Source: Pocillopora damicornis
Lineage: Eukaryota
Direction of reading: 5' to 3'
Length of the DNA: 64,000 bases
NCBI RefSeq assembly: GCF_003704095.1
Contig: NW_020847654.1
Location: forward strand, 186,001 to 250,000
Below, piece after piece: positions 1-57,163 of this stretch. A program made the translations under genes and the position numbers. Position 1 is the first letter of the stretch. Each line of letters begins with the position of its first letter. Below the pieces are notes generated by a model. The model had not been told where the DNA came from, did not search any database, and worked only from the letters and a program-made list of their open reading frames with translations.

Positions 1-8
1 TTCCATAG

Positions 9-6000: not shown

Positions 6001-8472
6001 TAAAAAATAACAACCGTGCAGTTACCTAGCACAGTTGCACAGGATATCAGCTGTAGCCCTCTTTGCAGAGGATGAGTATGAAGCCTTTATTGTATGTACT
6101 AACCACATGTTCCATTTTTACTGATCCCATGTAGATTGGAAGCCGAGAAAATTTCTATCAGTATGCCAAGACGACACTGATGAATGCCTTGTACACCACA
6201 GCATTGTATAATGGAGATGACACGGAGCCTGGCTACACTGCAGATTTGACAGCATACATTGTGGGAATGGCAAGACTGAGACAGCTCAGAGTTAAAAACT
6301 GTAGGTTGTTAAATTATTGGAAAGTAAGACAAATCTTAATGCACATCCTGAAAAAAAAAAAAACAAATAGATCGTGGTCAAAAAAAAAGGAGAGGTCGTC
6401 CACGTCGTTTAAGAGTAGATTGGTCTTCAAGAAAAGGTCACCTCAGTGCGTTAGTGGACGGGCGCGTTAATCTCACGTATTTACACCCGCTGCAGGGCTT
6501 TATGGCAACTGATGAGAAGTCTCACTCGGATTTCACCAAAAAAACGTTTTCACAGGGTAGCAAAAGCGAAATCGTATAGTTATCATTTTAGTTTGAGTGA
6601 CTCATAGTAAGAAAGAGACCTTTAGACTAATAGCGCGATTTATTCTTTGCAACAGACTCCTGTGAGGTAGCATCAGACTTCACACCTTTCATCGACGAAT
6701 GCAATGACTGGTATGGTTTTTTTGCCGAGGAGAAAGGCCAGTTTGATATTGGATGGGAGCCACTCAAAAACGAGTCCTTGTACATTCCGCCATTCACTTA
6801 CCAGGCGTGGGAATTCAACACATCGGATGAACTGGACACATTACCTGTGATGGGTGAGACATGTGTACAGTTTTTATAGGAGACACTTCCTATTAAGAAC
6901 TCTTGTTTTTCTGTTTCTTTTCTTCTAATTTTTGGAGGCATTATTCTTTACGTAATCGCATTCTAAACGCTGACAACAAAATAGGATAAAATTTAAGATT
7001 TATTGCTTTCCTGTATAATCTCTACATAATCTTCTTTTATCCTCCTAGGATTCGTGTCGACATATGGTGGGGGAGGATTTGTCGCAGAATTAGGATACAC
7101 CAGAGAAAACGCCACGAAAATTATTCAGACCCTGGAGGAAAACAAATGGATTGATTCACAAACCCGCGCTGTTATCTTAGAAATAGCCACATATAACCCT
7201 GTAGTAAATCTGTTCTGCGTTATGACTCTAATTGTAGAATTTCTCCCTACCAACGGAGTGTTCTTGTTTACTGACCTGAAGATTGCTCGCCTTTTCACCT
7301 TCGGAGGTGGTTTTGAATCATTTCTTGTGGCTTGCGAGTTTTTCATCCTCCTTTTCTTTGCTGTGTTCATTTATCAGGAGCTCAAGCAACTGTACAGGCT
7401 TCGGAAGGGATACTTCAAAGAGTTCTGGAACTACATCGAATTTGTAATGATCATATTGGTGTTCACGTGCGTGGGTATGTTTTTCACGCGTACGATGCTC
7501 GTGAACCAAGCAATTACCAGCCTAGAAGAAAATCCAGGAAAATACGTCAGTTTTGGCCGAGTAGCTTCCTGGAACGAAGTTTTCATGTACATGGTGAGCA
7601 TGGTGGTGTTCACTGCTTGGATAAAAGGAATTAAGCTCCTACGATTTAACCGTCGTATTACGATTCTGGCGCAAACCTTAAGAGGCTCTGCCGGTCCTTT
7701 GGCTGCATTTTCCGTTGTCTTCTTGGTATTCTTCCTCTCTTACTCGCTGTTTGCTTTTGCGGTTTTCGGCAAGGACATTTCTGATTTTTACAACTTTGTT
7801 TCTACTTGCGAGACTGTGATGGGAATTTTACTCGGCTCATTTGATTACAGGGCTATCGAGGAAGCGGCTCCTATTCTTGGGCCCATATTCTTTTTCACCA
7901 TAATGGTCTTTGGCACATTCATTTTGATGAATATGTTTTTGACCATCGTATTAGACGTGTTCTCCGAAGTGAAAGAGTCCATCGACGATCAAGAAAACGA
8001 GTACGAGATTGTCGACTTTATGATCCGGCGCTTTAGGAAGTTCACCGGCATGCAGCCAAACAAGGTTATGATTGACTCCGAGGAGCCGATGGAGAAGAAA
8101 GACATCGAGGAAGAAACTAATAAAGACCTACTGGCCCTGAATAACAAGAAAAAGCTAAGAGCTAAGAGAAAGTCTAAGCCAATGGATCTGGTGGCGCAAC
8201 GCTTCACAAGACTGGAGACATCGCTGAGTGGTTTTTATTGTGAGGAGTGGGCTGAGGAGCGCCTGCTGGATCACATAGTGGGGAGGAGGTGGGGAGTCAA
8301 TGCTGAGGCTGCTTACGCTCAGGCAGATGCTGAGTTACACGAGGAGCAACAGATGGAACAGCTGCGCCAGGATATGTACGCTGCAGCTGAACGGTTTGAC
8401 GCTGGTGAAGGAGCAATTAATTTGAACTTCGAGGATGATATTTTTGAACCTTGGAATTCGACTGATGCTTAA
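9..8472 (+). CDS. Polycystin-1 family (PKD1L2/PKDREJ-like) receptor-channel, 5'-partial; exons 9..296, 759..1406, 1986..2184, 2495..2655, 3492..3756, 4106..5185, 5378..5465, 5717..5894, 6135..6300, 6656..6853, 7049..8472
   Basis: All junctions are GT-AG and in frame. GAIN/GPS region (CKMFDEDKNTWTTKGCK|VGPKTIANSTHCLC), stalk FVAPNPIDF, TM1, PLAT/LH2 domain (YEITVYTG..AGTTA..FQRRGVDVFL..LWHNNGG..SWYVSRVVV..FICESWL), HLWFSVF..SRFTRLQRISCC motif, ARLRQLRV and YGGGGFVAELG..WIDSQTRAV of the polycystin TOP domain, and a six-TM channel with ILLGSFDY pore and MNMFLTIV S6. Confidence 0.95.
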
Positions 8473-10383: not shown

Positions 10384-11535
10384 TTAGTTAGTCGGTCTTA
10401 AAATGATTGTCGTGGGTCGACGGATAGATTCATCGCCCTGTGGTTGTCCGGAAAAGCAACAACACCAAGAGAGCCACTTAATGAGAATCCCTCCAATGTT
10501 ACCAATGAGAACAGCGGCGAAAGCGGAAGTATTTATCCACTTATTTTCATCGTGCAAGAAGAAACACACGCTAATCATAACAATGTTTTCAGCTGTGAAA
10601 AGAGCGTGCCAGAAAATTGTTGATAACGTTTGAAGTGCAGCACCAAACGGTGCAGTACCTCGCAGCTTTTTTAAATAGTACGAGCTGTAAACGAAAAGAT
10701 AAAATGGGGAATAAGCGAAAATAAACACAAACATATCTTGTTTCCGATTTGATCGCCATAGCAAGAATCCAGTGGCCACCATTACGAGACAATGAAGTCC
10801 GATTACGTAAGGTAACCGCCATGGGAAATATAGAGTAAAAAAGACAATCGCCAGCGTGCGAGCAGCAATCATTCCGGCGTTGCCAAGGAAGATGATAACA
10901 TTGTGAAGAAATGTCAAGTTGTATTTTTCAAATTCTCGGAGAACTTCCATCGAAGTAGACATCCATACGAGAGCCAAAAAGGAAACCGGTGCCGAAATCA
11001 TTTGAATCAGTTCAATTTTGGCTTCCTCTCTTTGCATCACCATCACGTAGACTTGTATCATCAGTTGCGGGGCGGATTCCAAAAGGCCTTCCACCATTTT
11101 CAAGTTCAGCGTGTGAACGTAAAGATAGTAGAGACGACCCTTTTCTATCCGCAAACCATCGGGTGAGTTCCAAAGCTCTTTGAAGCGACAAGCGCAAAAG
11201 ATAAATAACTGAACGCTATGCAGAGGAGGCCCAACGCACAAACAAGCTAGAGCAACATTAATCGTAGTCGAACGGAATATTACATCGGGGTTACCAGTTT
11301 CGTCATCAGCATCATCTTTTGTCCAAGTACGACTTGTGCTCGCAATTACCGACCAAATGCACAGCACTATAAGCGTTAAGAGCGTGACGCCGAGACTCAC
11401 TGCAAACCATTGTTGATCGTCGTTTGCTCTGTAAGTCAGACAGGTCATGATGTCTGTAGAGGTATCGGCTATTGTCAAAATAGCTTGGAAGAGGAATAAG
11501 AATGTGTGGAACCACTTTAAACGCACCTCTGCCAT
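10384..11535 (-). CDS. XK-related (XKR/CED-8 family) membrane protein, putative phospholipid scramblase; one coding exon, 383 aa
   Basis: The ORF from ATG 11535 (MAEVRLKWFHTF) has multiple TM helices, the N-terminal ADTSTDI motif, the family signature LKMVEGLLESAPQLMIQVY, ARTLAIVFF and AENIVMI. Confidence 0.92.
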   Translation of the reverse strand: MAEVRLKWFHTFLFLFQAILTIADTSTDIMTCLTYRANDDQQWFAVSLGVTLLTLIVLCIWSVIASTSRTWTKDDADDETGNPDVIFRSTTINVALACLCVGPPLHSVQLFIFCACRFKELWNSPDGLRIEKGRLYYLYVHTLNLKMVEGLLESAPQLMIQVYVMVMQREEAKIELIQMISAPVSFLALVWMSTSMEVLREFEKYNLTFLHNVIIFLGNAGMIAARTLAIVFFTLYFPWRLPYVIGLHCLVMVATGFLLWRSNRKQDMFVFIFAYSPFYLFVYSSYYLKKLRGTAPFGAALQTLSTIFWHALFTAENIVMISVCFFLHDENKWINTSAFAAVLIGNIGGILIKWLSWCCCFSGQPQGDESIRRPTTIILRPTN

Positions 11536-13105
11536 TGCACAAGTAGTTAAGTTAACAACCGCGTGTAAAACTGCGATTACAGGTAGACGAAGGTGATCAA
11601 GGTTAGAACAAACAATTAATATCCTACAGACAAAGAAATGACCTCTAATTGAAGTGGTATCGCATGAACGATTAATATTCAGAAACTGCCGGAAATATGG
11701 AATAATAGAGCAATGGAGCAATGGATTTACAGAGTCCGGAGTCACAAACGGATTAACTGGTTAGTACATATTTTCTGTCAATGAAACAGTCAGTATAGCG
11801 CGGTACCCTGATCCCTTTTCAAATTTACAGAAATACAGAGATCAATTCGTATGATAGCTGAAAGGAATGAAGCAGACTTCCTGTCAAAGTCTAACGAGTA
11901 TCAAGATTTCATCTGCATCATCATAACTTATCTTAACGGATATGGATATGATGCGTGTTTATAAAATATTATATCTAAAGATTAATTTATTTACAAAGGA
12001 TTTTTAAGATTTTTCAGTGTTAATACTGGGTCTGAAACTTTTCTTTCGGAGAAGATTGTAACCGGTTTCCTAAGGTTTTGATACTATATAATGATGTAAA
12101 GGACGATTCTCTTCTTTAATTTCCATACAAATTTTTCGTTATCAGCCTTTGCTGAAACATCTCGAACTGTCAGTTTAATCGAAATATAATTTTTTTTCCT
12201 CGCTTTTTCAAGGGAAGGGGGGAGCGTAAGGTTTATTATATTTTTAAATTTGTAATGAATATCTGGGTAGATATCGGGTGTCATAGATACCAAGTTTTCC
12301 GTATCCATGCAGTCGTTTCGTACCCACAGACGTTTTGTACTCAGTGCCTGACCCAGCAATCGGTGAGATCTAACGAACCTCACATGCCGGTTTTTTATAT
12401 GCAGCATCCGATTACATGCGACCCATGTATGACCTTAGATGACCGATATACAGATTCATGAGTGAAAATATCAATAGCGTAAGTAACTTTGGATACGTTT
12501 GTAAATGAATTACAGCATATAAAATCACACATTGCCTAATTGAATCATACAGAGCAGTTAAGATCTTGGGGCAAAGTTTGCAGCCCGGAATATGATGGAA
12601 AAATAAGTGATTTATGTGAGCGGATATTACGTTCATAGTTGCGCTAACCGTTAGTCATAATTACCCTTCTTTTTAGGGAAATATTTCTTCCCATGGAAAA
12701 AGCCGCACACTATGTTTTTCGGCATATGAGATGGAAATTTATTCACAATCACTGTGGAATGTTTCCCATTAATTACTTATTGTTTACTTGCGTTGTTCTT
12801 CTTTGTGTTCATTAATATTTAGTGTATGTAATATAATACAATGTAGAAGTGCATTAAGGAGAAACTTGTGAGTGACCTTAGACGGAATATTTACGCTTCA
12901 CGTATTGCTGAGGTTTTTGTCGATGACGTTTTTGCCACCGGAAGACTTGAAGTTGATGTGGGCGACACGTGCGGAAGAGAATGCTAAAGTCTAGTTTCTA
13001 AAGAGAGTGAATCTGCTCGTATTACTATTTCTGTCCTTTGGCGAAAACTGTTCCAGTTACAGAAGATTTATTCGGATGACTGAAAAGCATTGATTTCTTC
13101 AATCG

Positions 13106-16100
13106 ATGAAAATTCTCAGCGCATTTGTAGGATTCTTGTCAATCCTAGCAAATGGTTGTTTTGTTGAAGGTAAATCCAAGTGAGTGATAGCCACTGTCAA
13201 AGCGACAGCACTGCTGCAATGAAAGCATTGCTTAGTCTTGTTTGAGTATTATGGATCATTTTATTCTCTTGTTGATGTCGTAAACTTCGCCATTCTTTAT
13301 TCATCTTCGACTTCATCTATTTAATTGCTCATGTGGGTAGTTAGACGCCTCCTGATAGTCAATCATCGATGCTATCAAAAAAAATGGTTGTTTCACTACG
13401 ACAAAGTTGATTTCAATCACCGCTGAGACCTCTCTGTCATATTTTTGTCACGGAAAAACTCAGTGGACTATATCATCTTGCAATATCCCGTATATTGACA
13501 ACAACACTTGGTTGTGTTGAAAGGAGGCTAACTATGTTCACATCATGTGAAACTTTCAACGATAAAAAGAAACAACAACCCCAAACGGGTTACCGCAGAG
13601 TAAACAAGTTATTTTGTCGCTGGTTGCCGGTGCACAAATCGGCTCAGTAGTAATTCCAAATATAATCTGTCTTGAAACATGTCATTATTCATTAACAGTT
13701 GAAATATGCAAGTCAGTACATTTAAATTAGCCGCGTTCTTCTCACACCTCCGCTATAGAGACGGAATTTCGCTTGAAATAACTGATTAGCCAGTATCTTT
13801 TGTATTCAAAATTAATATTAGGTTTGTAATTTGAAGGCAAAGTCGAAAATATCAACCGTGGGCGTCACGGTCCGTGATAAGCCTAACATGTAATTCCGCA
13901 TGTTATGGATTGGAAAATCACAAGGTTGTCACAAGGAAATTTTGGTCACATCCACATTTGTTCATATTTGTCAGCAGAAACTATGTACAGTTGTAAATTA
14001 AGAACAGATTTTGTCAAATGTCAACTTAAATTCTGCCCACTACAAAAATACAAAAAAGATTACCAAATCCTTAGTGATAGAATCAGAAACCACTGTCAGC
14101 CATACTTGGTACAGTGAGTTTGTTTGGGAAATAATGAAAATGCAAAACCATCGGCATGCTCGTTGGCTTATCTAAAACAGTTTAGAAAGTTGAAACTGAA
14201 CATCTGTACTTGTAAATAAACATAGATCCTTACTTAGAGATCCTTGCAATGATTCCTCGCGCAACTTCGAACATATAAACATTTGCAAGTATTTCACACA
14301 TTATTCAAAGATTACGAATTCTGAGTTTACTAAAATCGCTTTGGTATTTTTCAGGATTCTTTACAAAACCAATCAAATGTGCAGCTAGGAAAGTAGTGAC
14401 TCCTATAGATGCCCCACGCCATCAGTACTATCCCTTCTTCGTCAGTGTTTACCGATGTAGTGGAGGCTGCTCTACCAACTCACCTAATACGTACCACTGC
14501 TCCGCCACAACCTGGAACAATGTAACTGGAACTGTATTTGATTTGCAAACTAGCACCCAAAAGGTTCTGACGGTTCTAAATCATACCAGTTGTGAGTGTA
14601 CATGCGTAGCGAAGGCTAAAGATTGCTCTGAAAACGAACTTTACAACGAAGATACATGTAGTTGTCAATGTAAATACCAGGATGAACCTCAAGTAGGATG
14701 TCCCGCGAGATTCAGGTGCGTATTACTTCATCTTAACCGTGCAAGGATTTGTTTACTGGCCAGTGCCGACGAAATTGCCCATATGGTTGGGAAAACCCCG
14801 AAAGGCTTTCGATTTTTGTTGACACGGAATATTTAGTACAGCGGTTACATATTTGGACCCATGTTAGAAATTCACAAGTGTGATTCTCCCGTATATTTTT
14901 GTTCCCCATAGTATTTTGGATGAGCCGTCTTCGAATGTGAATCTTTCTTGTTTCTTAGCGATTCGAAAAGCTTTTGTAAGAGTTTCGGTTTCTGGAAAGA
15001 CTTATGTCATGCGAGTTTGCATATTCTGTTAAAGCCGGAGATAGAATTGTATGATGATGATAAAAAGCTAGAGTGTAATTATCGAACTAAGCTTCCTCAG
15101 TTTTTCCGATTTTCGACATTTTCACATCCAAAAATCCGCCTCTTATCAGGCTTATACATTCAAAGGAGTTCTGTGATGAATTCCGTAAAGCTTCTGGAAA
15201 CGTTAAATGCGATACCTTCTTGAAAACCCTCACTTAGAGATTTACTTGTGGGCCGAAACAAAATCTATGCCTTGCCCAATGTAATACTATAAGCATGGGA
15301 ATCGGTAAAATTTGGAGTAATTTTTTTCTATAGTTGGAGTCAGTTCCAGTGCAAGTGTGTTTGTGCAAGGCCAGTAGAATTTTGTCCTGTCAACATGGTA
15401 AGTGCAATTTCTGACATTGACGATCCTTTGTTGTTGTTGTTGTTTCTTATAAAAGCTGAAAAAGAGACAAGAATGGATCGCAGTGATGTGTAAACAGCAT
15501 TATGGCGAGTTTTAAGAGCTTGCAAAAAGGTACCCCTAGTCCTTCTCTCTTCCCCATTCTACTGTCAAATCACTTCCACGGGGGTTTACCCTTCTGTATC
15601 GTTACACATGTAAGGTTGAGCTCCCAGGATTTCCCAGCCAGTGAGGGATTATCCATCCTGGTCTCAGTCAGTTAAGTTTCACTTCACAGTACAGTCGTCA
15701 TCAGGAAGTTATCATTCGCAGACGGGTGCTTTCCATAAAGCGAGTCATAGAGTTTACAGCAAATATCACTCTGATCATAACTGAATTTCCGGTGCCTCTG
15801 ATGCGCGGTGGGTCTCTTATTTTATGAGAAAACCTCCGAGTTCATATCAGAACATTCAAACATTGAGTGTGTGTGTCTGTAAAGCGGGGATGCGCCTTTT
15901 TTTCCTCCACTACCATTAACTTCCTGTCCACTGTTCCTCAGGAGTGGAGTTACACAGCGTGTGGTTGCGTTTGTACTCGGTCTGTTGTGGAATTTTGTAA
16001 ATTGGAGAAAAAAGTCCTCAACGCCTCAACTTGTGAGTGCGAAGAACCTAAAACAATAGTGAAAAATTTAAATCCTGGTGTCCCTGGCAAAAGAACTGGT

Positions 16101-26551: not shown

Positions 26552-26987
26552 GACATAAGAAGGATATGTTTACACTCATCAAAACATTATTTTTCATTGG
26601 TTTAATCACAATAAGATGGCAAAAGATAGACCAATGCTGTGAGACTTAAGAATAAACAGGATTTTCCCACGATTCGATTCGATTCGATTTCCGTGTGATT
26701 CGATTGCGGTGCTGACCAATTTCTGTCTCCATCTTTTATCACTTAAGTTTAGGGATTTTCCTAATTTTGCCGTAGCTGAAAATCTTTCAACGTTCCTGGA
26801 ACTAGTGGGAGTTAGCAACTGCCTGTTTTTATACGTTTCAAAGTTTCAGAAGCTCATGATGACTCCGCCTGCGATCGGATTTCAAACTGCAGCCGGCTGT
26901 TCGCAAACGAAAGAAAATTATTTATGTGTACACAGTATTTTTAATTAACTGCGACAAACAACGGTTCAAAGTTTTATTCTAGAAAAA

Positions 26988-29900
26988 ATGTCTGGCCAGA
27001 AACCATCTATAACAAGTATTCCGGCGAAGTACATGAACGAGTTAGCTAAAGGAATCACGAGGTTAAATAACAGAATAGAGGATGATGTCAGTGAAATGTG
27101 TCGGGAAGTCTTAAAACCGTTTAGAGAAGACTACAAGACAAAAATAGAGCCAGTGTCAGCAGAAAGACTAGACAGATGTTTGAAAGATATCCTCCGTAGC
27201 TTAAAAATTCACCTGAACTTTCACTGCGGAGTAGCAGAGTCTTCGAGGACGGAAACGGGGATAGAAATGAACACAGAGAGGGAGACAAGCTGTTATGGAG
27301 AAATCGCTGAACTAGAATCTGGTCTGGGTCCAATATCGAACCAGGAGGAGGGACGAATTTTAAAATTTGTCATCGACCCTGGAAGCTTACTTTTGGAAAT
27401 GGTGAGTTGGGAAGCGGCTATAAAGTTACATAATTGATATTGAAATATTGCAAAACGTAAATGTTACAGCAGCCGCACAAGGAAAGAAAATGGAGGTTAG
27501 CTAAACTAACTAATCAAATAAAAAAGAACCATCATTTCTTAAGGCTGCTTTTCAAGGATGCCGTGTCTCGTTCGAAGCCATAATGACATAGTTTACGTTT
27601 GAACGTAAAATCGATATTCGGGAGCCATTCTGTGAGGCTTGTACATCATAATGGATTTACCTATTAGCTTTTGACGATTGATTCTACGCCGACTTAGAAC
27701 CTTAGAACCAAAACAAAATTTTGTGGTTCCCGGCTTTTAAAAAACAAGGAACTCAGTTACATGCCGATAGCTTTTACGCTATAAGTATGTAATTGAGTAA
27801 GTATATCATTTGTTTCGAGGCAGAAGAGATACAATTTTTTTCCTTCAAGAGTTGTAAGCAGGAAAAAAAGCTTGCAAACAGGTATCCTCGCGTTACAATA
27901 GAATATAGTGACAGTGTGACGCATGTATATAATTACGAATGGGAAAAACTGGAATGTGGCTCGTGCAAGCGATAAAAGATTTAAACCATGGCGTCAAAAT
28001 TGTAAAACTCTAGCATACCGATATTTTGTACTGTTTCTGTTGTGGAAGGCGTTTATTATTGTGCAGTGGCGGATGACATTAGTCATTCTGGATCTCTCCT
28101 CGACTTTCCGGAAGCTTTCGGGGAATTTCAAATGTGACTGCGCGCATCTAGAGATCTATTAGGTCTTTCAATACATATATACATCATACATCGACTTTAT
28201 TTATACACGATGAATGATAAAAGCTAAACGCTTATGGGGTCGTGTGTTTAGTTATCTAATCAAATTAATAAGAAACTTAACAACTAGCTGAGGCTCATAA
28301 CAAATGCTAAAATCTCATGCAAATACAGTTGTAATATCTTAAAATCCTAAAAATATCTAAAATCCCGATTCCAAAAATTAACTGTAGAAGCTGGTTCTAC
28401 TTTAAAAGTAAAGTCTGTGAAATCTTTAATTTTACTTAATCTAGAGCTGATAGCTATACGTGGCTCAGAAGCAATATCAGAGTTTTCCGATGTACATATC
28501 AAACTCATGGGGTACAAATAGTCTTAACATAAATGTAATGACCACGCCCACTTCAACACCCCACTCAAATCGAGTGAAATTTTCGAATGTTTTACCATCG
28601 TGCGGATTCTCTACGGAAGAGGGACTCAATGTACCTCTGAAATATTAAACTATAATATTGTGGCTTTCTATTTCGCTAATTTTCTAACTTGAAGGTAAAG
28701 TTTTTCCCCCCTCATTTTTACCTTTTCTCCGAGCGGTTGCGTGAGATTAACAAGGCGTTTTTGATCAAAACACGACCGAGCGAAGGGTCTCGGGCGATAT
28801 CTCTTTTACGCAGTCGCAAATTTAAAATATACCGCCAGAATCAAAAAGAGGAACAAATTTCCTTTGTTTTGATATGTAAATTGTCGAACAAAAAGCAGAT
28901 TTACCTTCGTCAAATGGCGTTTCAAAATAGCCGTATCTTCCTCCTTTTGATTTTTCCTGTTTTGTAAGCGTGAAAGCAGTAGAAGAGGGATCGGGAAACT
29001 CAGAAAGCGCTTCGGGAATTAATCTGCCATCGTTTACTTACAAGATAAACAAGTAAGATTTGTGAAGTTCGTTGAAGTATGAAGTCTAAATAAATGCCTT
29101 TTTAAAGCTTGTTTGCTGGATTTTTCGTAAACTTCCCTGATTAATTTTTCGTTTCAGCTTACTAGTCTATAGTATTTCAAAGCAATGTCAAGACGAAGAC
29201 GGAGGACCATGAGTCGGTCCTTTCAACAATCGTAAACAAAGTGTTTGAGCAATCAGGTATACGAGGTGTAATAATCAATAGCCGTATATAAGAAGTCTTC
29301 AGAAAGAAAGTATTCTGTCTTCAGAAAGCTGTCAAGAAAGCTAATAATCGTGGCGGAAGGCAATTAAACGGGCCCTCGGTATCGATTTAATATCATATCG
29401 ATCTCAATATCATACAGTTCTGTATCTTTCTTTCGTGGATTCGCCTTTCTAACGAGGGTGTATGTTGAGAATTTATTGCAAAATCGCTTTGTTTTTTTAA
29501 TTTCCCTCTTTGACCTGTCCGCCATTTTGAAAATTCGTAACGGAGAGCATGCGCATTACGTGGGGTAAGTGGTTGCGTACACCTGGAACCGAGAAAAACA
29601 AATGTTCGTCGCACTGGGGAAAGAGTTTGATATGTTGCATTCCACAGGACTGCCCCTCTGCAACCAATAGATTGCTGTAAACAACGAGATGTAAATCTAG
29701 GTACAATAAACACGACATTCCCTTTGTTAATGATACTAGTACATAGTTGTTTTGGTAATAAGCCATTATAAGCACTATGCATTAACTTAAAGATTTTGTC
29801 CTTGAAGATGTATGCCAAAGTCTGCCATTTGGCTATCTTTAGAGAGTCTTCGTTCGACGTGTCCTTTAAATTATAAAAAAATAATTGCTGCATAACTGTG

Positions 29901-32900
29901 GAGATTTTCCAGCTTCCCGAATAGCTCTGAATTACTGCAGTTTGCTCAAGTGACTAGACTGTAAGTGACAGATGGCAGAATAAAACTTAAATAGAAATTT
30001 TCCAGTACACTCTTGGGAAGAAATATTGATTTTCTCAGGAAGTTGAGCTTACTTACGAAGCTCTTTTACACTTCTGACAAGTGTGGTGACCATGTCAGTT
30101 TGTTGTCGACCGTTACTCCTAGTAGGCGCGATTTTTTAACCCATGTTACCAAGGAGCCCCCAATAGAAACAGGCGGAATAGGTCCGTTATAATTAGACCC
30201 AGTAATGAGCATAGCCTCGCATTCTTTAGGGTGTGGTATGAGCCTGTTTCTGAGACACCACTCGTGCAGCTCTGTTAACGCTCTGTTTAATAGTGAAACC
30301 GCTACATTTCCATTGTTCCCAACACAGTATACTGAGGTGTCGTCAGCGTACATGTATGTCTCTTCCGAAGCCACAGAGGATGGAAGGTCGCTGGAAGATA
30401 AAGCAAATAATGTTGGTCCTAAAACTGAGCCCTGCGGGACTCCAACTTGAACTGGCTGAGTCCCAGATTCGGCGCCGTTGACCACAGTGAACTGTTTTCT
30501 GTCACTTAGATAACTGTTTAACCAGTTAAGCAAGGGACTAGAGACACCAAAATTGCGCTGTAACTTTGTAATCAGGAGAGAGTACTAAACACAATCAAAG
30601 GCTTTCTTGAAGTCTATAAACACAACTGCAATGGCTTTTCCCTTATCAAGCTCTTTTCTCCATTGCTCAGTCAGCTGTGTTCGTAGTAAATCAGTAGAAT
30701 ATCCTTTGCGGTATGCCCACTCTCTGTCCGAATCAAGGTCGTTAGCTGTGAAAACATGATCAACTAATATGTCATTCACAAGTTCTTCAAGTATCTTGCT
30801 TGGTATGCTCAGAGGTGAGACTGGTCTGTAGTTGGCGATATCTGTCTCATCGTCCTTTTTGTGTATTGGTGTAATCCTTGCCACTTTCCATTGCAAAAAC
30901 ACAGCTTCACGATCAATAATATGCTGGTAGAAGCTGACCAAAAATGGAATCACTGTGTCTCCAGCTACTCTTAATAACTTTGGATGAATATTGTCCGGTC
31001 CAGCAGACTTTTTCACTTGCAATGAGTTAATCTTCCTGGATACCGCTTCTCTGTTTAAGACAACCTGAGACAAAAGTGGTACCTCTTTGTTCTCCAAAGT
31101 TATAGGTTGCAAATGCGTTGATGTTGGCAGTAAGTTATTTAGCTTATTCCCCACGTTAGAGAAGAATAAATTGATCGAGTTCGCTTTTTCTTTATCTGTT
31201 AAAGCCAGAGTTTCATCCTCTTTTTTAATGGGTCCAATGCTTTTTCTGGCTTTTGGATTTGCTGCTTCAGTTACCAAATTCCAATAGGCGCTGGTGTTCT
31301 TAACCTCACTGAAAAAGTCAGAAAAGTAAGGTGCTTTTGCTTGATGCTTAGACGTCATTCCGCAGTCTTTTGTACTCCGACCACTTAGTAGGACACTTAG
31401 AGGCTACGGCTAATTTAAAAAGCTTAAATCTCCTGTTCATCTTTAGGCGTATTTCATTTGTTATCTACGGTGGTGCAGAAACACAGAAAACAGAGACTGC
31501 CAGGCCCACAGAACATCATCCATATCCTCCAAACATTCGGTGGCATGAAATGGGGCGTTAACGAGGTCAGATTTGAAGCTGTTTACGTCAAAGTTCTTAT
31601 AATTCCGTATTTTGATGACTCGTGGAGGCGGCCTTTTGTGTCTTAGACGTAGAGTGGCATAAATTAAATCATGGTCAGTAATACCAAGTGGAAATACTCC
31701 CGTTGAGGTTACCAAATTCCTACGGGCCGTGACAATGAGATCAATCAGCGTAGATGAATCAATTATAGTTCCCCTTGGTTTAGTGATGATGTTTTGCATA
31801 CTGAAATTATCAAAAATGGTTTGTAGCTTAGTACTTCATGCTGTATCACTAGAGTCATTGTAGTCATGCATAATTTAGGTCTCCCAGCAGAAAAATGCCA
31901 GAAGATTTTAACCATGCCCTCTCCAAAGTGGTATTTAATGTATTGAAAAAGGCATTGTCTTTTGGCGGTCTACACATTACTGAAAACAAAGCAGAAGTTG
32001 TAGGAAACTTAACTTATAGCCTTAGTGCCTCAATACATGGAGTGTGCAGGTCCCTTCTATGTACAGCTTTAAAATATTCAGCGTGGTATAATATACACCC
32101 TCTGCCCCTCCTTCCGTTCCTGCCAAGACGTACAAATTTCATTCCCTCGATCTCCAGTTGAGAGTCTGTGATGGAGTTGTCTAAGTGTGATTCAGTAATT
32201 TCTATTATGTCAAACCTGCAAAAGACTTGCAAACACCTTATTTCGTCGATCTTATTCCTTAAACTCCTCACATTCAAGTGGGTCACTTTGATTTCTTTTG
32301 AAGCGCAGCTCTGCACTTTATCGGCCAGGTCTTTCATATAATCCTCCTCGGTAACCATTCTTGTGTCGTTTCTTGTGTCCGAGAAATTCAAATCATATTC
32401 TTCACAGTTAGAATACAACTACGTATGGTCATTAAAATTTTGAAAGTTCACGTATTCGACTGGCAAAACGTTACACCATTTTATAAGTGTCTTGAAACCA
32501 CATCCATCGCAAGTCATCGATCTGTGTGTTTTTACTACGGCTTTTTCGCATACAGTGCAAGGATTTTTGACTGGTCCTGGGTTTAGTTGTACATCTCCAC
32601 TCACCAGTACCTTATTCAGTTGAAAAGTTGCTGTGGAGTTGCAGTAATACTGTAGTCTTGAGTCACAGAAAGATTTTCTATAAAATGATCCAACATGGCG
32701 GACTCTTGTGAGCCGAATTTTACCAGTGTAAGAGCCTTCATACTCCCAAATATAACCTCCATTCCCCCTAGAAACACTATAGAGGTCTATACTTTGACTT
32801 TTCTTAGTAAAAAATCTTGTATTAAGATTGTACAAGGAGCTACACAGGATAAGAAAACTGAAAATTACGGAGTTCAGAAATGCGCGTCCGCCCGCCATGA

Positions 32901-34628
32901 TGACACGTGCATAGCCTGTACCGCTCAAATTTTAACAAAATCGATTGGTGCTTTTAAAAAAAAATACCACTTTTCAAGAGGAAAAGATTTCTATTTTAGT
33001 TCGGGCATACAAACACCCGCGAAGGTGGAGGTGAATAGTAAACACTTAGGGCCGGCTTTTATACAAGAGGTCTAACCCAACAACAGTTTGCGCAATCATT
33101 GGGCCTCAGCTTTCTCTGTAAGAGGGTTGGTTTAAATTAAATAAATGTTCTTCCATTGTTATCTTTTGCCTCTCTTGACACTGTAACAAAAACAAATGTT
33201 AAGGTAAGAGGTTCAACTAAATAGAGGATTGTTTTCGACATGGTTTTGTTGAGCAACGGCTAAACTTTGTCAATAAATAATCATATGTAATTAGAGCCGT
33301 TTAACCCTCAAGTCATGCAAACCGCGCTCTAAACAATCTTAAATCAAGCTAAGCAGAAAATATCACCGAAACGCTAGGTTTTTTCCGAAACTGTCAAAAC
33401 CGCGGCCCAAATTAGACCTCGTTTCAATTACCGACTGCGGCAATAATGCCTGCTTCCGAGAATCTCGATCTTTCCCAAACATTGAGAGTCAAAGGGAAAA
33501 AATAAGCAACTGTTTCCCGTAGAACCAGAATTAAGTGGTTTGGTTCACATCCAGACGAACATAGTAAACAAGCAAAAAAATGAACGTTCATAACAACACA
33601 ACTTTATTTCCTGCAAACACTGCACTCGAACTGCAAATTTCCCTCTAGCAAGGAGCTCTACCAAAAAGTAGCCCTCATCAAAGCCTTTGAGAATATAACT
33701 CCCCGGGAAGTTCTGTTGAATCTCACCGTAGCCAAATTTACGAGCTTAACTTTAGAATTATAACATTTCTTATCATATAGAACTATGTGATTGATATTAA
33801 TGACTCGTAGGCAGTTGGCCTGGTTCTCAGATGTCCAAGTGAGAGAAAGTGGCCTTCACTAGGCTTGTAGATAGACATCTTGACAAACAGTTTCTCAATC
33901 AAAAGTGTTTGTATTTTTTTCCCTTTCAGTTCAGTATTTACACACTCGCGGAAAAGCCAGATGATGTCGAAGGAAGCGAAGCTCATGCCAAACGTGTTTT
34001 TGAACTTGCAAACGTCTGGTTTAAGAAACTTGACATAAAAAACACCTTCAAGCCTAAAGTTTTAGCTAAGATTTCACAACCCGGCAATAACAAGCATTCT
34101 ATTGGGTCTTCAATAGCAGTTAGTCATTTCTTAAGGCCTATCTGTTTGTATAACAGAATAATCCGTCTGAAACGGACTCTTGCAAAAACGATTTTGCATT
34201 TCGAGCCTCTGAAACTAGAGGAAGACGAATGGGTTTTTGAAGCATTTCAACACAAAAGCGGAGACGACGGATATCGTTCCAAAAAAGATACCTGTAAAAA
34301 TTGTAAAATGATCTTCTTTGGTGATCATTGGGGAGAGGGACATTCCACATTTCTTGGAGCATGTGCAGAGTATTGCGCTGTCAACGAGCTTCTTCCACCT
34401 GAAGGAACTGCACAAGATAAAGTTGATAAAGAAGACTCTCCCCTTCTGAAAAGAAACTTATCTCGATGTTCACTTCTTTTCGAAGGCTTTAAGGACATAT
34501 CAGAAAAATGCATTTATGTGTGTAAACAAAAAAATTGTGACGAGAACTCGCTAAAGGAAGTGTATTGGAAAGTAATATATAAATTGCACATTTTTGGTCT
34601 TAAACCAGAATGTAATCCTTGCTTTTAA
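26988..34628 (+). CDS. Uncharacterised protein of about 370 aa with putative zinc-dependent deaminase-like motifs (CKNC-x19-CAE); exons 26988..27401 and 33930..34628
   Basis: A phase-0 GTGAGT donor after 27401 and a phase-0 acceptor (polypyrimidine tract + TTTCAG) before 33930 join two long open frames (...DPGSLLLEM|FSIYTLAEK...). CxxC at 34293..34304, CAE at 34362..34370. The coding call is fairly firm; the function is inference. Confidence 0.7.
28171..32930 (-). mobile_element. Decayed non-LTR retrotransposon (CR1/L2-group LINE): 2A-like leader, PHD finger, APE endonuclease, reverse transcriptase, 3' UTR
   Basis: Fragmented ORFs 32419..32928 (SGDVQLNPGP, CTVC..CDGC), 32014..32418 (HLNVRSLRNK, ITESHL), 31461..31799 (TLIDLI, TDHDLIY), 30585..31358 (KSAGPDNI, NYRPVS, FIDFKKAFDCV), 30066..30533 (GVPQGSVLGP, YADD) and the 5' part of 29393..29893 (RGAVLWN). 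The 3' end with AATAAA and a (TGTA)-like tail is at about 28171..28493. Stops and frameshifts are present. Confidence 0.93.
28494..29635. mobile_element. 1.14-kb insertion with 13-bp terminal inverted repeats, nested in the LINE 3' end
   Basis: ACATATCAAACTC at 28494..28506 and GAGTTTGATATGT at 29623..29635; LINE sequence resumes on both sides; no clear TSD. Confidence 0.7.
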
Positions 34629-42340: not shown

Positions 42341-45300
42341 ATGTTGCTGGTCATTTCCATCTTTGTATTTGAACTACTGGATGTAACTTTGTCGGCCCAG
42401 AAAGGGGAAAGTAAGTTTCAAAGTCAGATTTTAACAGTTTCGTGGCTGTGCAGGTTTGAGAAAGTAGCCGATCTTAACGATCAACACTTAATCAAAGGGA
42501 TCATCAGTCGTCATAAATTAAATCTTAATACTCCGGCCGTAAAACATATTCTCTGTGGGAAGTAATCAGCTCTTCTCGTGGCTTTTACGCCAAAATCCCT
42601 CTCTGCCGTTACTCGGTATTTCCACTTTACCAACAATCGTGGCTAAGCTCGACTACGCGGGGTAGGTTTTTTGAGAAGATGAACTGCCGCGAGGTAAAAA
42701 CCATCAACAGACTGTATCCCACTTTTTCAATGAAAAGTGAGTGTTAATCTCCTTTTAAAGTTTAACAGATCAAACGCACATGCATTGTTAAATACTTGTT
42801 GTTGAAGGGAAATAGTCTGTGTTTTTGTGACCCGCAGAACTCTTATTTACCTCGTTAGATTTCTATCCACTGTTCAATTCTACGTGACATCATCTTAATT
42901 GCGGATATCCTGGATCCCAGACCTCACTTCCCATCTTAGCCATAATAACTTCAATAACGACGACAATGATAATTTCAGCTTTATTTCCTCTCTTCCTCTC
43001 TCTCAGGGTTGACAAATGTTCTCTGTCAAACGCACGAGACCGTTATTCCCGTAGATTCAACTGATCATGGCTTTTACCCTTTCTATGTGAAGCTTCATCG
43101 CTGTGCTGGCTCAGTGGGCACAGTGTCTCCCAAAGTGCAACATTGTGTGGCACAAAGTTACGAGGAAATAAACGTCCCAGTGTATTCGCGTGCAGCAAAC
43201 TTTCGCCGGACGACCGTCACCATGAAAAATCACACCAGCTGCGCTCCTGAATGTGTAGCCAGTCCGCTTGACTGTGATTTGGCAGTACAGGACTGGGACG
43301 ATAATTTATGCGCATGCAAATGCAAGTATCCTGACGGACCACCTAAGGAACTCACTTGCAAAGAAGGATTTAGGTACGAACCGGACCTTGAGAATCGCAA
43401 TGGAAGCTTAAAAAACGTTTTACTTTCCCTTTAATGGTTTGTCCTTGCTGGAATATATTTACATGTTATCTTAGGAGATCGTTAGGGACATATTTAACTG
43501 CAGAGAGATGGACGGTAAAAATGTACGACCAAAAAATTAAATTACTCGTCAGCCACTTAACCATCCATATTTTTGGGTTATTAATTTTTTCGGTGTTTAC
43601 TTTTTGAATTTCTTTCAGGTGGAACAAATATAAATGCGCATGCGAATGTGACCGAGCACCTGAGCACTGTCCCATCAGAATGGTAAGGCATTCTTCATAA
43701 CCGCCGAATTTTAAGAATTTCACAATTAATGGAAGGAAAATACAAATTTAGAAAATATTCAACGTTCGAATGACGCACTCTCTGCAGTAAGTTGTCTCCC
43801 TATGCCACCTAAATTACAAGTCAAAACCAATTTTCGCAAGATTCAGATCTTAGAAGACTTTTTAATCGATTGGGAGTCTTTCCACTGCGTAAATATAAAA
43901 CTGCTCAACGATTCTCTGCTCGACTGTGACAAAAAAAAATTTCTATGTTTTTCTGAAGAAAGTCTTAAATGAATGAAAATGTATGTACAAAATGTACCAT
44001 GTAGAAGAACAGTATTTGACAGCTTGATATTACATTCCTCTCACGGGTTTTAATCATTACACATTCTTTTTCATAACTGGTTCTTCATCTGAAGCGCATC
44101 ATGATTCTTTTTGTTTTGTACAGACTTGGAGCAAAGACATCTGCGGTTGCAAATGTGAGAGCAGTGCAGTAAATGACTGCATACAAATGGAATTGGGAAT
44201 TGACGTTGATTGCCAGTGCGTGGATGTGAAGGCGTTCCGCAGACATAAAGCAGGTAAACACGTATCTCTAAAATGAGTTTATCTCTAATTTGATGCTAAC
44301 ACGATGCACTGACATTTGGTGAACCGCTGGAGTCCAAGACGAGGCTCTAGCCTAGGAAAAGTCCTTCTCCACCCAGAGGTATAAAATGGTATTTAAAGCT
44401 GCTGTAGTTTGTTTGCAATGGAATTCACATTGACAAAAAAGCTTGGGGCAATTTGGGGGAAAAAACATGGAATTATAATTTGTAGTCTATAATCTCAAGC
44501 ACGGGCATATTCAGGACGCTATGTTATTAAATCATCTTTAAAGACCATTTCTTTTATCAGAAAGAAATGTGATACATTTTTTTTTTGATTATCGAACATT
44601 TTTTCATTTTAAATTTCACCTTTTCACATTTTTCTTCTGTGCTTCTCCCAATGCACGTGAACACCCTTCACGCTTGCCTCGCGTTTGCCTCCGTTCGCCT
44701 GAAAAACACAAAAGTGATACCCCTGTTCAGCAGGTTAGGAGGCACATTTTGTCACGCGTTTAGCACAACATTTTGGTTAAGGCAGCCCCCAATTTAAGAC
44801 TGTACTTATGAATTCATTCCCTGTCTGATTTCTTTTGGAAATATTTTACTTTAATTTGGCAAGCCGTTATTCCCCTGAAATGTTACCAGCTTTTAATTTT
44901 TTTTTCTAAAAGTATTTGTTTTTTCCTGCAGTTTACTCTCGAAACCGGATGTTTATAACACTTCTGATAGGTCAAGCAGTCATCATCATACTCCTCATTT
45001 GTGCTCTGGTACACTGGGTACGAAAGAGAAACCGAAACAGCTCGGCCAACGCTCCGCTCGACGGATCAGACCCAGGAAAGACGAATGATGAAGTTGCTTC
45101 TCAATGTAAGTATCTTGAAGAATATGAGGAGTTTTTCTGGATACAAAATAGGGATCATATCCAAATCTTATCCGAGAATCAGGGATGGTCGCTGCTTAGG
45201 AGGTATCAAAGGTGGGGGGGGGGAGAACTAGGAGGAACTGATGGACGCAAAGGATTTAAGTTATGCAAGAAATATCATCGATCTGCTTTCTTAAATACAA

Positions 45301-45454
45301 GCTATATTAATAATATTATCGTTATTTATAAAACCTTTCAGACCTAAAGATGGCTGCTAATTCTGCCGAGTCCTTAGAGGGTGCGAAGGATTCAAGTGAC
45401 GACGATAGCTGCACTGCTCCTTTGTCCCCCAAAGTACGAGTTACAAACATCTAA
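42341..45454 (+). CDS. Membrane-anchored PDGF/VEGF-domain protein 2 (about 305 aa); exons 42341..42410, 43007..43373, 43619..43682, 44124..44253, 44932..45105, 45342..45454
   Basis: Signal peptide MLLVISIFVFELLDVTLSA; core C..FYPFYVKLHRCAGSV..C..NHTSCAPEC; CXCXC repeats; TM MFITLLIGQAVIIILLICALVHWV followed by RKR; tail ending VRVTNI; 918 nt in frame. Confidence 0.9.
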
Positions 45455-48745: not shown

Positions 48746-51700
48746 ATGATGCAGTTTTCAATTTGGACAATTGTTCTTCTTTTATCCCAAGCCGCATTTC
48801 AATGTACCGGTGAGTAAATTGCCAAGTGTCGATTCTCACACATAGCTTGACTGTTTCATTCTCAAAATCCCAATACTTAATGATTAAGTCTGCACCTGTG
48901 GTGATGTAATGAAGCTATTTGTGATAGATGCACCGTTTTCGTTCATTCATTTATTCATTCCTCGTCACCAACGCCAGATTCATAAAACTACTATCGACCG
49001 CTAAATTCCGGTTTGATTCCTGGTTACAGCATATGTAACAAACAATGAAATACTACTGTATTGGGAATATGTAGATAAAAATGAAAAAGAAAAAGCAGTC
49101 AAAGTGTTAGGAAGTTACTTTAAAAGCTACCGGCTATCGGGGAAAACCCTAAGTCACCGAGTTTACGTCCTGTCTGAATTTTTCTCAGCAACCAAGAGAA
49201 GGTTTATGTAAAAAAGTCACCAATTCTATCATACAATATATTTTCTTTATCTAGAGGCTCTAGAAAAATAAGTAAGGTCAAACATCCACGCATCAAGCTC
49301 AAAACTTTCTTCGATCAAGACAAACACAAAGTGGGGCGTTTACTTTCGCTTTCTGATTTCATTCATCGAAAGATCCCTCAACCGGTAATAACCCTTCATG
49401 GACGAGTCCCTTGAGAAATTTCGATCAAGACATGTGATCAGGTTCTGCTGGGCTGATCGTGTTATTTAATGGAGATACGGGGCGGGGGAGGAAGATCAAG
49501 ACATTTTGCATTACCGTTCGATTGTGTTCATTTTCAGCGGCTGTCAAACCTGTTGCTGTTGAGTGCAATCCACCAGTCCTCTCGACTGTGGCAGTGGACG
49601 AACCGCACCACAGATATTATCCATATTTCATACGACTCCATCGGTGCGAGGGCTCGTACGGGTACGAAAGCCCCAACATCAAGAAATGTGTGGTCACAGA
49701 GAGTAGGGAGGTTACATTTTCGGTCTATGATACTACCAATAGACTATCGACACAAATAAGACTCCAGAATCACACGAAATGTGGCCCTGAGTGCAAGGCA
49801 AGTCCTCTCGATTGTGATTTAAAAGTGCAGGAATGGAACGACAAAAGCTGCCAATGCAAATGTTTATATCCACGTTCGCCTCCGCCTGACGATGTCGTGA
49901 AACCAAAAAAGGGCTTTGGGTGAGTGATTTTACCACAAAAAAGTCAGTGGAGAGAGAGAAGCATCTGTTAATTTCAGATTTTATTGTGCTTCTCAGACCC
50001 CTAGCCCAACAAGCTCTGCCTCTGCAATCATTTGTTTGCATTTCAGTTAGGACACACTTAGAAGCCTATCGGTAGATTAAATGAAAATTTTATTTCTGTG
50101 ACATTTTTCCATTCTTCTAGGTGGAATAACCATCTCTGTCGATATGAATGCAACACACATGAACGTTGTCCGCTTGAAAAGGTAATAAGGTGGTGAATTG
50201 ACTAGTATTTCCATTATTTCACAATGTTAAATGGGTCATGCAACACTTACACGAGTTATTGGTAAAGCAAAATCTTGGTCACTCTACCCACAAGGATTGT
50301 TACACAGGAGGAATTAGTTTAAAGTTTAAATACTTTTTTGGGAGTACACATTAAACCAATTATTAAATGAATAAATGAAGAATAGTCAGTTGCAAACTGG
50401 AAGCCAAAATCCTTTTAAAACAGCCCACACCTATAATCAATTATTACGGGTTAACAACTGAGATGAACATGAAATGGAAAGGGAAATAAATAAGGGAGTA
50501 CTTGACTAAAATTTACTTGTGTAGTTTGTACTTGAATGGGTTATTACTAACTGACTGATTGATTGAAGTAACCTAAAAATATATTATTTTTGTTGTGCTT
50601 CACACAGATGTGGAATAAGAAGAAATGTTCCTGTGTTTGCACATCATTTTATGAACATCATTGTAAGGCTGAAAACAAGTTGATGGATCCTAAAACATGT
50701 GCATGTAAAGATCCAATGAAATCAACAGCACCACGACCTGGTAAGTGAAAATAGGGCCAGCTTATAGTTGGAATGGAGAAATAATGTCTTCTTGAAGGGA
50801 CTAGGGGTTGGTTTGGATAGTATCTTCTATACATACCTATGAAAATATTTCCTTCTGGAAGATCTTTACTTTCAATGGACCTCACATTACCATAAAAGAT
50901 TGGGGCAATTTCAGAAAATAGTGTCTGAAATATGAGGAGTTGAGGTCATGGCCCCCTTCCACCCCTTCCTACCACCCTTAACAACTCTGCTCATCCATCC
51001 TAGGGCTTAACATTGTCAATGGTTTTATAGATCTATGAAAGAAACCAAAGTTGTGGGAATTCTTGCTTATTCATGATTTGTGATGGAAGTTTTTTATTTC
51101 TTACAGGGTTCATGACCTATGTGGAATCCAAAGTCCTTGCTGTTTTTCTTGCTCTTGCAATAGTAGTGATTTTATGTTTAATTACCTACCTTTGGTACCG
51201 CTCAGCTTATCCCAAATATCCATTTGGATCCTCTGGAAAACTGAATGAGTCAACCAGTAGTGCTGGTATGGTTAATTATTAACTCTTCAATCCCTTAGAG
51301 TGACTGGCATCGAATTTCTCCTCAAAGTATCACCATTAAAATCAAACATGAAGGTCGTGAGGAAAAAGGAAATGATCACCAATTTTGAAGCTTTTTATGA
51401 TCAAACAAATTTTCCTTGTCAGTACCAGAGGAAATAGAACAGTATGGAGAATATAGATATCAATGTTAGGGGGGTATAGGGTTATGGAATGGAGCTGACA
51501 CCTCAAATTTGAGGTTGCTCTATTATTACTAAATCTCTTCATTTCTCTATCTAATTTCTTGTTGTTTCCTTGTGCTTTCACTTCACTGACATCATTAATC
51601 AATATGTACCACGATCACTGTTTTTAAGCCTACATACAATGATAATATAATCATATCGTGATTCCATTTCCTCTCATTAACTTACTGACTGATAATCATT

Positions 51701-54807: not shown

Positions 54808-57163
54808 ATGCAAGAATCAATCGGTATAATCCTTCTCCTTCCACTACTGGGACATGCAGGTACTTATGTGAAAATCTTGTTCTCGACTCTTTAGTCCACT
54901 AGCTCCGCCATCTACAATGAGGGCAGCTTTCCAATGATTTCCACTGTTTCAAGAAAGTAGCCACTTCCTAAACCAAATTTAATATAACTTTATGAACGCG
55001 ACTGACCTTTTCACCACACAATTTAAGTAGACTCAAGAGAATATAAAATGATATACTCTTGGTAGACTTCTATAATATAGAATTTTTCCAATTAAGATTA
55101 CTAAATAATCATAGGATCTAAGAGCCTAAGGGTGAAGAAGGAAAGATTTGTTATAAGGTGAAGACAAGAGATGGAAAATTTAGGTGAAGAATGGTGCCCT
55201 AAAGGTGAAAATCGCATCTATTAAAAGTAAGGGTTGACATGAGGTAGAGAAGACATCGGCAGAATTTGACTGTTTGAGGATGGAACAATAAAAGAAAGTT
55301 AATGTTAGTTGCCAAGGCAATAATTAACTATTATGTATCAAGGTATTGAAATTAGCTTTTTGTTTACTCCTAGTTCGCTTAGGCAACGAACTCTGCAGAC
55401 CACGACCGACTTTAGTGCCTATAGACGATCCAGAATTCAAATTTTTCCCCTACTTTGTGAAGCTTCATCAATGCGGCGGATCATGTGACCATATTCAACC
55501 TTCGGTAAAATCATGCATTCCACTTGAGTACGATGAAGTGTCTGTCACTGTGCAAGTGGTAGGTACCGATGAAATGCGGACTACACAAGTGAAAAATCAC
55601 ACGCGTTGTGGATGTGAATGCGTCCACGGCCCGAAAGATTGTGACTTGGAATTAGAGGAATGGAAACCAGACCTATGTCAGTGCCAGTGCAGAAACAGAG
55701 ACAGACCATCGGTTCCGTGTGGGGCAGGAATGACTTGGAGTAGAGCTCAGTGTCGATGTGTGTGCAATAAGCAGCCTCAATCCTGTGGTCCAAATAAGGT
55801 AATATCATAGAGAATTTCTGTTGAGTTGGAAGAAATTCGGGAATTTGATACTTGTGAAATATTCATTGCTCTAAATAATGAAGCCGAAATATTTGACACA
55901 TATTTTACAGAGACGCATAGGTAAGACAGTACGTAAAGCCGCGAAGTAAAAACTTAGTTTGTACGGGTGTACAAATTCATGATGAGCTTAAAATTCCATT
56001 TAATTTTTCCTTTTTCAGGTATGGAATAAAGAAGCTTGTGGATGTGTTTGCAAAGATAGAAGGTATAAAAACTGTGCCAGGAAACAAAAGCGAGTGGATG
56101 AAGAGACTTGTAAGTGCACTACGAAAGTGATGCCTCCAGCAGTAGGAAAACAGTCATCTCCCAAACCTCACTCAAAAGGTAAGTAAATTTGTTAAAGTAG
56201 TGCCTTCTTTAAGAGAGAGTGCATAAAAATCTGACAAAAAAGGTTCAGAAAACTTACTCGAATGTTTCTGGCAAAATTCTTCATTCATCTCAAACCCTTG
56301 CAAGTAATACCCCTCTTCCCCTCATCCCTCAAACCCGCGCCCCCTACCCCTACCCCCTTGCCCCTTCCCCGCATATTCCTGAGTTAAAAAGGTTGAATTT
56401 AAAGGACTAATCCTTGTAAGTAATTAAGGTTGAATAACTTTGTTATATAACAATTTTTCATTTCAGGTGGACTTCGCCAAGAGTTTTACGTGATATTATT
56501 CATAGGACAGTTTGTCTTGTTGTATATGGTTTTTGAAGCGGTCCTTTATCGTAAGAAAGCTGGTTTAATATATCGCATCACACGGAGCTGCTCAACAAAA
56601 GGTAAATTTTATCGACTCTCTTTAATTTTTTCTGCGTTTTTAGAACGGTGGATAAAAATGTAAAGATATACAAACTGTACGGAATTCAAAGACCAAAGTT
56701 AGAATCTCCGACCATTACTGAAAATGGAAACTATATGATGCTTTAATACCGAAGGTTTGGAATTGAGAATGAATGAGTTAATTATACAAATTACACAAAC
56801 CCTTTTCGAGTAGATTTTTTTTTAACTTTGTTTGCTGTATGACTCGTTGTAATACCCTGTAAGCCACACCTTTTTCGGCTATATATTCCTACTCCAACCA
56901 AATAAAGCCGGTGCAAATTAATCCGATTTCGAACTGGACATAATCTCCTTTATCACCAAATGTGAGTTTTCTTCTGGTCTACCCGTGCGGCCCGTTAATA
57001 ACCGTGTCGGTCGTTCTTTTCGTCAGGCGGTCATTTGGACATCAAGGAGTCAAGAGAAGACATTCTCAGCGTATCAAGCAGTGAGACGGAAACAAATCTA
57101 CCCACAGAAACAGGACACCACAATGTAGAGGCCTCTATCAAAGAAAGCCAAGCTGTCGTGTAA
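54808..57163 (+). CDS. Membrane-anchored PDGF/VEGF-domain protein 4 (about 302 aa); exons 54808..54859, 55374..55798, 56019..56178, 56467..56601, 57027..57163
   Basis: Signal peptide MQESIGIILLLPLLGHA; core CRPRPTLV..FFPYFVKLHQCGGSC..CIP..NHTRCGCEC; CXCXC repeats; TM FYVILFIGQFVLLYMVFEAVLY followed by RKK; tail ending SQAVV; 909 nt in frame. Confidence 0.9.

Follow-up and report, generated by a model that had tools for sequence, protein, structure and literature searches.

A coral gene family with zinc deaminase motifs in reversed order and a resemblance to the YwqJ deaminases

The window analyzed here, a stretch of 64,000 nucleotides (nt) from the coral Pocillopora damicornis (RefSeq assembly GCF_003704095.1, contig NW_020847654.1, positions 186,001 to 250,000 of the forward strand), carries a two-exon gene, present in one copy within these 64 kb, whose predicted product combines the zinc deaminase motifs CxxC and GxCAE in the reverse of their usual order (table 1). 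The deaminase superfamily is defined in part by the order [HCD]xE followed by CxxC, on which searches for new members by motif and profile rely. An initial annotation, made from the sequence alone, had proposed a permuted or rewired deaminase of 370 residues. This gene model holds: The exons join to 1,113 nt encoding 370 residues and a stop, with canonical splice sites, an intact reading frame and no internal stops. Residues are numbered on the full-length protein, which corresponds to the exon-2 residue number plus 138, unless indicated otherwise.

Table 1. Features of the window, with positions counted from its first nucleotide.
Feature	Position	Strand	Remarks
Coding exon 1	26988..27401	+	Residues 1-138; donor GTGAGT; no Pfam or NCBIfam family
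Intron, 6,528 nt	27402..33929	+	GT..AG; joint in three RNA runs; carries decayed long interspersed nuclear element (LINE) and other repeats
Coding exon 2	33930..34628	+	Residues 139-370; acceptor TTTTTCCCTTTCAG; predicted deaminase core and C-terminal helices
Predicted deaminase core	33963..34409	+	AlphaFold predicted local distance difference test (pLDDT) 93.4, predicted template modeling score 0.87; fold searches; covariation
C260-x-x-C263	34293..34304	+	Start of helix 3; predicted zinc ligands; PCxxC in most homologues
G-x-C283-A-E285	34356..34370	+	Start of relocated helix 2; predicted third ligand and catalytic Glu
C318	34467..34469	+	Fourth conserved Cys, in long C-terminal helix; 116/121 rows
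Upstream open reading frame (ORF), 30 codons	26856..26948	+	Ends 39 nt 5' of main ATG; within stretch covered by RNA contigs
Decayed LINE in intron	29393-32931	-	Reverse transcriptase fragments split by stops
Polycystin-1-like gene, 3' part	1-8472	+	PLAT, polycystin and PKD channel domains
XK-related gene, single ORF	10384-11760	-	
Five related PDGF/VEGF-domain exons	14372-14716, 43018-43377, 49558-49887, 55394-55732, 63218-63523	+	Tandem orientation

RNA sequencing, which the annotation had put forward as a check on the junction between positions 27401 and 33930, indicates that the exons are cotranscribed: Four runs were picked among 21 listed, and assembled contigs of three of them, from two studies, skip the 6,528 nt between GT and AG. 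The raw reads of the fourth run, with a coverage of about onefold or less over the exons, contain no junction reads. Full-length homologues span both exons and cross the same junction point (DPGSxLLEM, followed by F). A misjoining of the exons or a pseudogene is ruled out by the RNA junction, the homologues across it and the intact reading frame. The region encoded by exon 1, in which the motifs DIxxSLKxH and DPGSxxLE are conserved, is probably helical, and with a hydropathy of 0.18 for the best 11-residue stretch of the N-terminus there is, as annotated, no signal peptide. The contigs extend 5' to positions 26700-26716, carrying information on neither strand nor start site. A second upstream ORF of six codons (26924-26944, plus strand) likely lies in the 5' leader as well; the upstream ORFs could dampen the translation of a mutagenic enzyme.

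Recomputed on the spliced protein, CxxC (C260/C263) precedes C283-A-E285 by 19 residues, the spacing originally reported. In 20,000 shuffles of the 370-residue protein, a loose CxxC..[CH]xE pair arises by chance in 7.8%, and CxxC..GxCAE in 0.005%; the pair counts as real less for this rarity than because its four residues are conserved in homologues. These were collected by three word-index searches and a HMMER scan of 1.84 billion representatives, which returned 81, 136, 56 and 56 overlapping hits. From a set of 252 proteins, the 188 with at least 170 residues were aligned and 129 retained (60% core coverage, less than 85% identity); a second alignment of 121 rows leaves out eight apparently partial or frameshifted sequences. 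Each of C260, C263, C283 and E285 is found in 127 of the 129 nonredundant homologues, which come from stony and soft corals, and this includes the glutamate on whose conservation the annotation had made its proposal depend. S199 and R207 are kept in 124 and the proline ahead of C260 in 103, whereas the glycine of GxCAE is found in 102 and replaced by alanine in 22. In the 121-row alignment C283 and E285 are invariant and the CxxC cysteines present in 120 rows. With a single exception, the sequences have a spacer of 14-35 residues from CxxC to CAE. The order CxxC-then-CAE runs throughout the family alignments, where the canonical order of the superfamily was not encountered.

Most of the matches are unnamed; those with names belong to Stylophora pistillata, Montipora capricornis, M. 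foliosa, Paramuricea clavata and Dendronephthya gigantea, the nearest being a S. pistillata protein with 59% identity. A tree of 26 chosen rows separates a stony-coral-named from an octocoral-named clade (100/100) and places three Stylophora paralogues in separate branches; coral species carry several diverged paralogues each. Near-identical alleles or close paralogues (P0003, P0217 and P0223) differ mainly in a loop at about 34209-34229 (exon-2 residues 94-100), which lies ahead of strand 3, at the usual place of helix 2.

In the AlphaFold model, the core runs from helix 1 through strand 1 (KVLAKIS), strand 2 (HSIGSS), insert helices (beginning LRP) and strand 3 with a hairpin to the CxxC helix 3, a variable linker and the GxCAE helix; the helix, two strands, helices and strand first read from the sequence are thus all present in the models. 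CxxC and CAE both sit at helix N-termini in the core model, a feature of the superfamily motifs, and in both models the loop and the CAE helix come after helix 3, with the strand 4-5 hairpin of the cytidine deaminases (CDA) absent. The coupling of strand 1 with strand 3 is the top-ranked covariation. The best structural matches, although weak, are CDA-clade deaminases, among solved structures blasticidin S deaminase and cytidine deaminase (1wn6, 2z3g and 3b8f). A VIA search with the whole exon-2 model was dominated by the C-terminal helices, a viral fold library gave no significant match, and a two-copy prediction with zinc, made without the alignment, scored 0.01.

The fourth conserved cysteine, C318, may be a buried residue, a fourth zinc ligand or a latch. 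The family might accordingly hold a structural or latched zinc, with C260, C263, C283 and C318 making up a four-cysteine site and the scaffold, of deaminase origin, serving as a binder, a sensor or an enzyme kept shut until the C-terminal helix moves. We regard this as quite unlikely, despite the presence of C318 in 116 of the 121 rows and weak couplings within the top 45 (F129-C180 and A146-R179 in exon-2 numbering) that bring residues 317-318 close to F267 and A284: Columns that hardly vary tend to yield spurious couplings, the core reaches a pLDDT of 93 without the C318 helix, and E285, needless in a purely structural site, is the most invariant polar residue of the family. A deaminase-type catalytic zinc site seems to us quite probable.

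To relate the family to known deaminases, its profile was compared with one of 21 YwqJ domains gathered from bacterial genomes. In native order the match reaches 34.7%; with the GxCAE segment placed after the insert helix and ahead of strand 3 it rises to 93.75% (E 1.8e-7, 98 columns), and this restored order (S1-S3-S2) is the best of six segment orders against YwqJ. The same restored profile scores 0.7% against TadA/guanine deaminases (8 sequences), 0.2% against RibD (5) and 4.4% against CDA (3), and 95.7% against five short toxin-type YwqJ domains chosen after the matches were known. As a hidden Markov model, it finds a YwqJ domain as its best match among 2,374 ORFs (E 4.7e-6). The best named clusters in the ESM Atlas are YwqJ deaminases as well (0.77-0.79), to be taken as leads only. 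The annotation had framed the protein by the CDA, APOBEC and TadA folds; deaminases are indeed the top matches, but the nearest family, by the Atlas leads and the restored profile, is YwqJ. A circular permutation is ruled out, as every element except the CAE helix keeps its place in the sequence and no other segment order matches as well as S1-S3-S2, so that of the permuted or rewired fold first suggested it is the rewiring that stands, as a transposition of one helix. Among bacterial sequences, the order-restored profile comes closest to a compact YwqJ-like domain (L059:2-439) ending a 1,321-residue ORF of genome G313, in appearance the tip of an Rhs-type toxin.

Several results weigh against this kinship. 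The two motif segments by themselves already score 93.2% against YwqJ. Shuffling the N-terminal segment makes the score drop by only about 4 units (46.8 vs. 42.6 +/- 1.3, with a maximum of 49.4 in 60), and alone this segment scores inside the shuffle range. Masking the four residues leaves 3%, with the register still kept over 68 columns, and reordering does not raise the median YwqJ score. It follows from the shuffle, masking and median results that the motif-bearing segments are YwqJ-like, whereas homology of the N-terminal strands is less secure: It is plausible, but unproven. Scans of Pfam, NCBIfam, PADLOC and PDB sequences gave no significant deaminase match, and none of 43 and none of 60 members passes the gathering cut-off of PF14431, the best matches being one of the 43 at E 0.051 and one of the 60 at E 0.096. 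The fold searches that the annotation had recommended on an AlphaFold model, with Foldseek among them, rank CDA-clade deaminases at the top but with every score below significance.

The lack of significant matches and fold scores would also be explained by an unrelated, independently evolved small alpha/beta zinc fold, in which CxxC and CAE resemble deaminases by convergence, and the top prokaryotic matches of the native profile, CxxC stretches in five proteins of about 960 residues, fit such an origin. We nevertheless consider it improbable, since Foldseek, VIA, the Atlas and the profile comparison all rank deaminases, rather than another fold, top where matches are annotated, the strands would be ordered 2-1-3 in the sheet, and GxCAE with the helix that follows aligns with YwqJ beyond the bare motif.

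Relatives outside the corals were sought by pattern and profile. Pattern matches in IMG/VR (27) and GTDB (162) yielded no confirmed relative, nor was one confirmed in plasmids and phages. The five matches among 301 prokaryotic genomes (the class of G001) were discarded as the CxxC stretches just mentioned, in proteins which we take to be UvrA-like, and PADLOC matches to Cas7 (E 0.0004) and Cas12f (E 0.01), in one octocoral protein each, were taken as CxxC noise. Degenerate scans for CxxC..GNCAE gave seven GTDB loci among the matches listed, with no in-frame family member, and at least 359 metagenomic and viral loci, of which 27 among the matches listed are in frame and none is family-like; because these scans fix one codon each and cover listed matches only, they do not show absence. 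For fish, whose uncharacterized proteins the annotation had named as similar, no match so named appeared in the word-index searches or the HMMER scan, where most matches are unnamed. The best three of 30 ESM Atlas matches are unnamed clusters of 114, 127 and 82 members (349-388 residues, score 0.93-0.94) whose commonest phylum is Chordata, and it is these embedding matches, as leads only, that carry the link to fish.

In a published survey, the YwqJ clade is characterized by the motif Gx[CH]xE, by inserts that follow strand 2 and precede CxxC, and by frequent truncation past helix 3, and the eukaryotes listed for it in 2011 are basidiomycetes (PMC3239186). The coral family shares the GxCAE signature, which conforms to Gx[CH]xE, with PF14431 and Bacillus subtilis YwqJ, an ssDNA (single-stranded DNA) cytidine deaminase toxin. 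Common to both are also the helical insert after strand 2 (LHP in YwqJ, LRP in the corals), an insert between strand 3 and CxxC (a hairpin and variable loop in the corals), and, going by what that survey describes, an early end of the core, which stops after helix 3 or strand 4 in the YwqJ clade and after helix 3 in the corals, whose model has no further sheet strands. The corals differ in the reversed motif order, with helix 2 not following the insert helix; in the replacement of the insert histidine by arginine (124 of 129 homologues); and in being animal, intron-containing genes with extra N- and C-terminal helices and without a toxin-delivery domain. Because the family departs from the YwqJ clade in order and histidine, we file it as a new deaminase variant. 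With CDA and blasticidin S deaminase it shares the CAE motif and a predicted three-cysteine zinc site, but lacks the hairpin of strands 4 and 5 that follows helix 3 at their C-terminus.

Following the known mechanism of deaminases, C260, C263 and C283 would hold one zinc with water as the fourth ligand, and E285 would shuttle protons for hydrolytic deamination. The loop after helix 3, mostly 14-32 residues long, would return the chain so that GxCAE begins a helix in the helix 2 slot; the base and phosphate pocket would be lined by S199, from the end of strand 2, and by R207, at the place of the YwqJ insert histidine, and the N- and C-terminal helices may regulate or target the enzyme. Because YwqJ stops after helix 3, the reversed order could have arisen simply, by a duplication and the subsequent loss of the first helix 2.

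The substrate could instead be a small molecule, a free nucleoside, nucleotide or nucleoside antibiotic that the paralogues detoxify or deplete by means of the same rewired site. The ranking of blasticidin S deaminase and cytidine deaminase as best matches among solved structures, and the presence of the motif in its CDA form, CAE, would suit this alternative, which we still judge unlikely given that the restored profile favors YwqJ (94%) over CDA (4%, from a control of three sequences only), that the CDA hairpin is missing, and that conserved basic residues (K/R179, R207 and R/K214) flank the core. If the site is of the deaminase type, we hold cytidine in polynucleotides to be its probable substrate. 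Bacillus YwqJ is stated to deaminate cytidine in ssDNA and not in the RNA tested, earlier screens of other YwqJ members having been negative, according to the accessible portion of a recent preprint (bioRxiv 10.64898/2026.09.29.755374). In the available text on the AID/APOBEC-like deaminases including SNAD, these are described with HxE...PCxxC and helix 4 before strand 5, most SNADs having a signal peptide (PMC5889660); its main text does not contain "permut" or "reversed". As in these clades, some of them cnidarian, the coral family is animal and lineage-expanded with diverged paralogues, and the same defence role is proposed; it differs by carrying CAE after CxxC, by lacking a signal peptide and, in the model, strands 4 and 5, and by matching none of these clades in Pfam.

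Overall, we assign a probability of roughly 55% to the coral gene encoding a YwqJ-like zinc deaminase, with helix 2 relocated behind helix 3, that acts on single-stranded nucleic acid and would serve, as the least secure part of the proposal, in defence. The rewired fold is proposed on three weak but concordant lines, namely the structural matches, the language-model leads and the order-restored profile match. The family is likely an animal offshoot of the bacterial YwqJ-type cytidine deaminases and would edit nucleic acids. By analogy, as YwqJ acts on ssDNA and invertebrate AID/APOBEC-like clades are expanded, it would most likely work inside the cell, deaminating cytidine in ssDNA or RNA for defence. 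More tentatively, and with the odds somewhat against it, it might represent a third animal lineage of nucleic-acid-editing deaminases apart from AID/APOBEC and ADAR/Tad: a bacterial YwqJ-type toxin acquired before the split of stony and soft corals, its catalytic helix set behind the CxxC helix and so missed by ordinary profiles, expanded in corals and serving in chordates too, the fish proteins included, as an unrecognized mutator or antiviral editor. In the paper listings and abstract openings searched, neither a reversed-motif deaminase nor an animal YwqJ-like family is described. If the proposal is correct, the deaminase fold can be rewired and the reversed order occurs in a natural enzyme; a set of animal deaminases would be invisible to order-dependent motif and profile searches; corals, and possibly fish, would gain a candidate enzyme for editing or antiviral action beyond AID/APOBEC and ADAR; and base-editor screens would gain a new scaffold.

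The genes next to the deaminase-like gene, and the homologues, mark the window as stony-coral DNA. Within it, the deaminase-like gene sits between the first and second of the PDGF/VEGF-domain exons. A likely transmembrane helix in an ORF at 44910-45347 suggests that some of the PDGF/VEGF-domain proteins may be membrane-tethered. In the intron, reverse transcriptase fragments of the decayed LINE match RVT_1 at 30066-31403 on the minus strand (E 1.7e-6 and 5.6e-15), and high-copy repeats lie at about 28400-29800.
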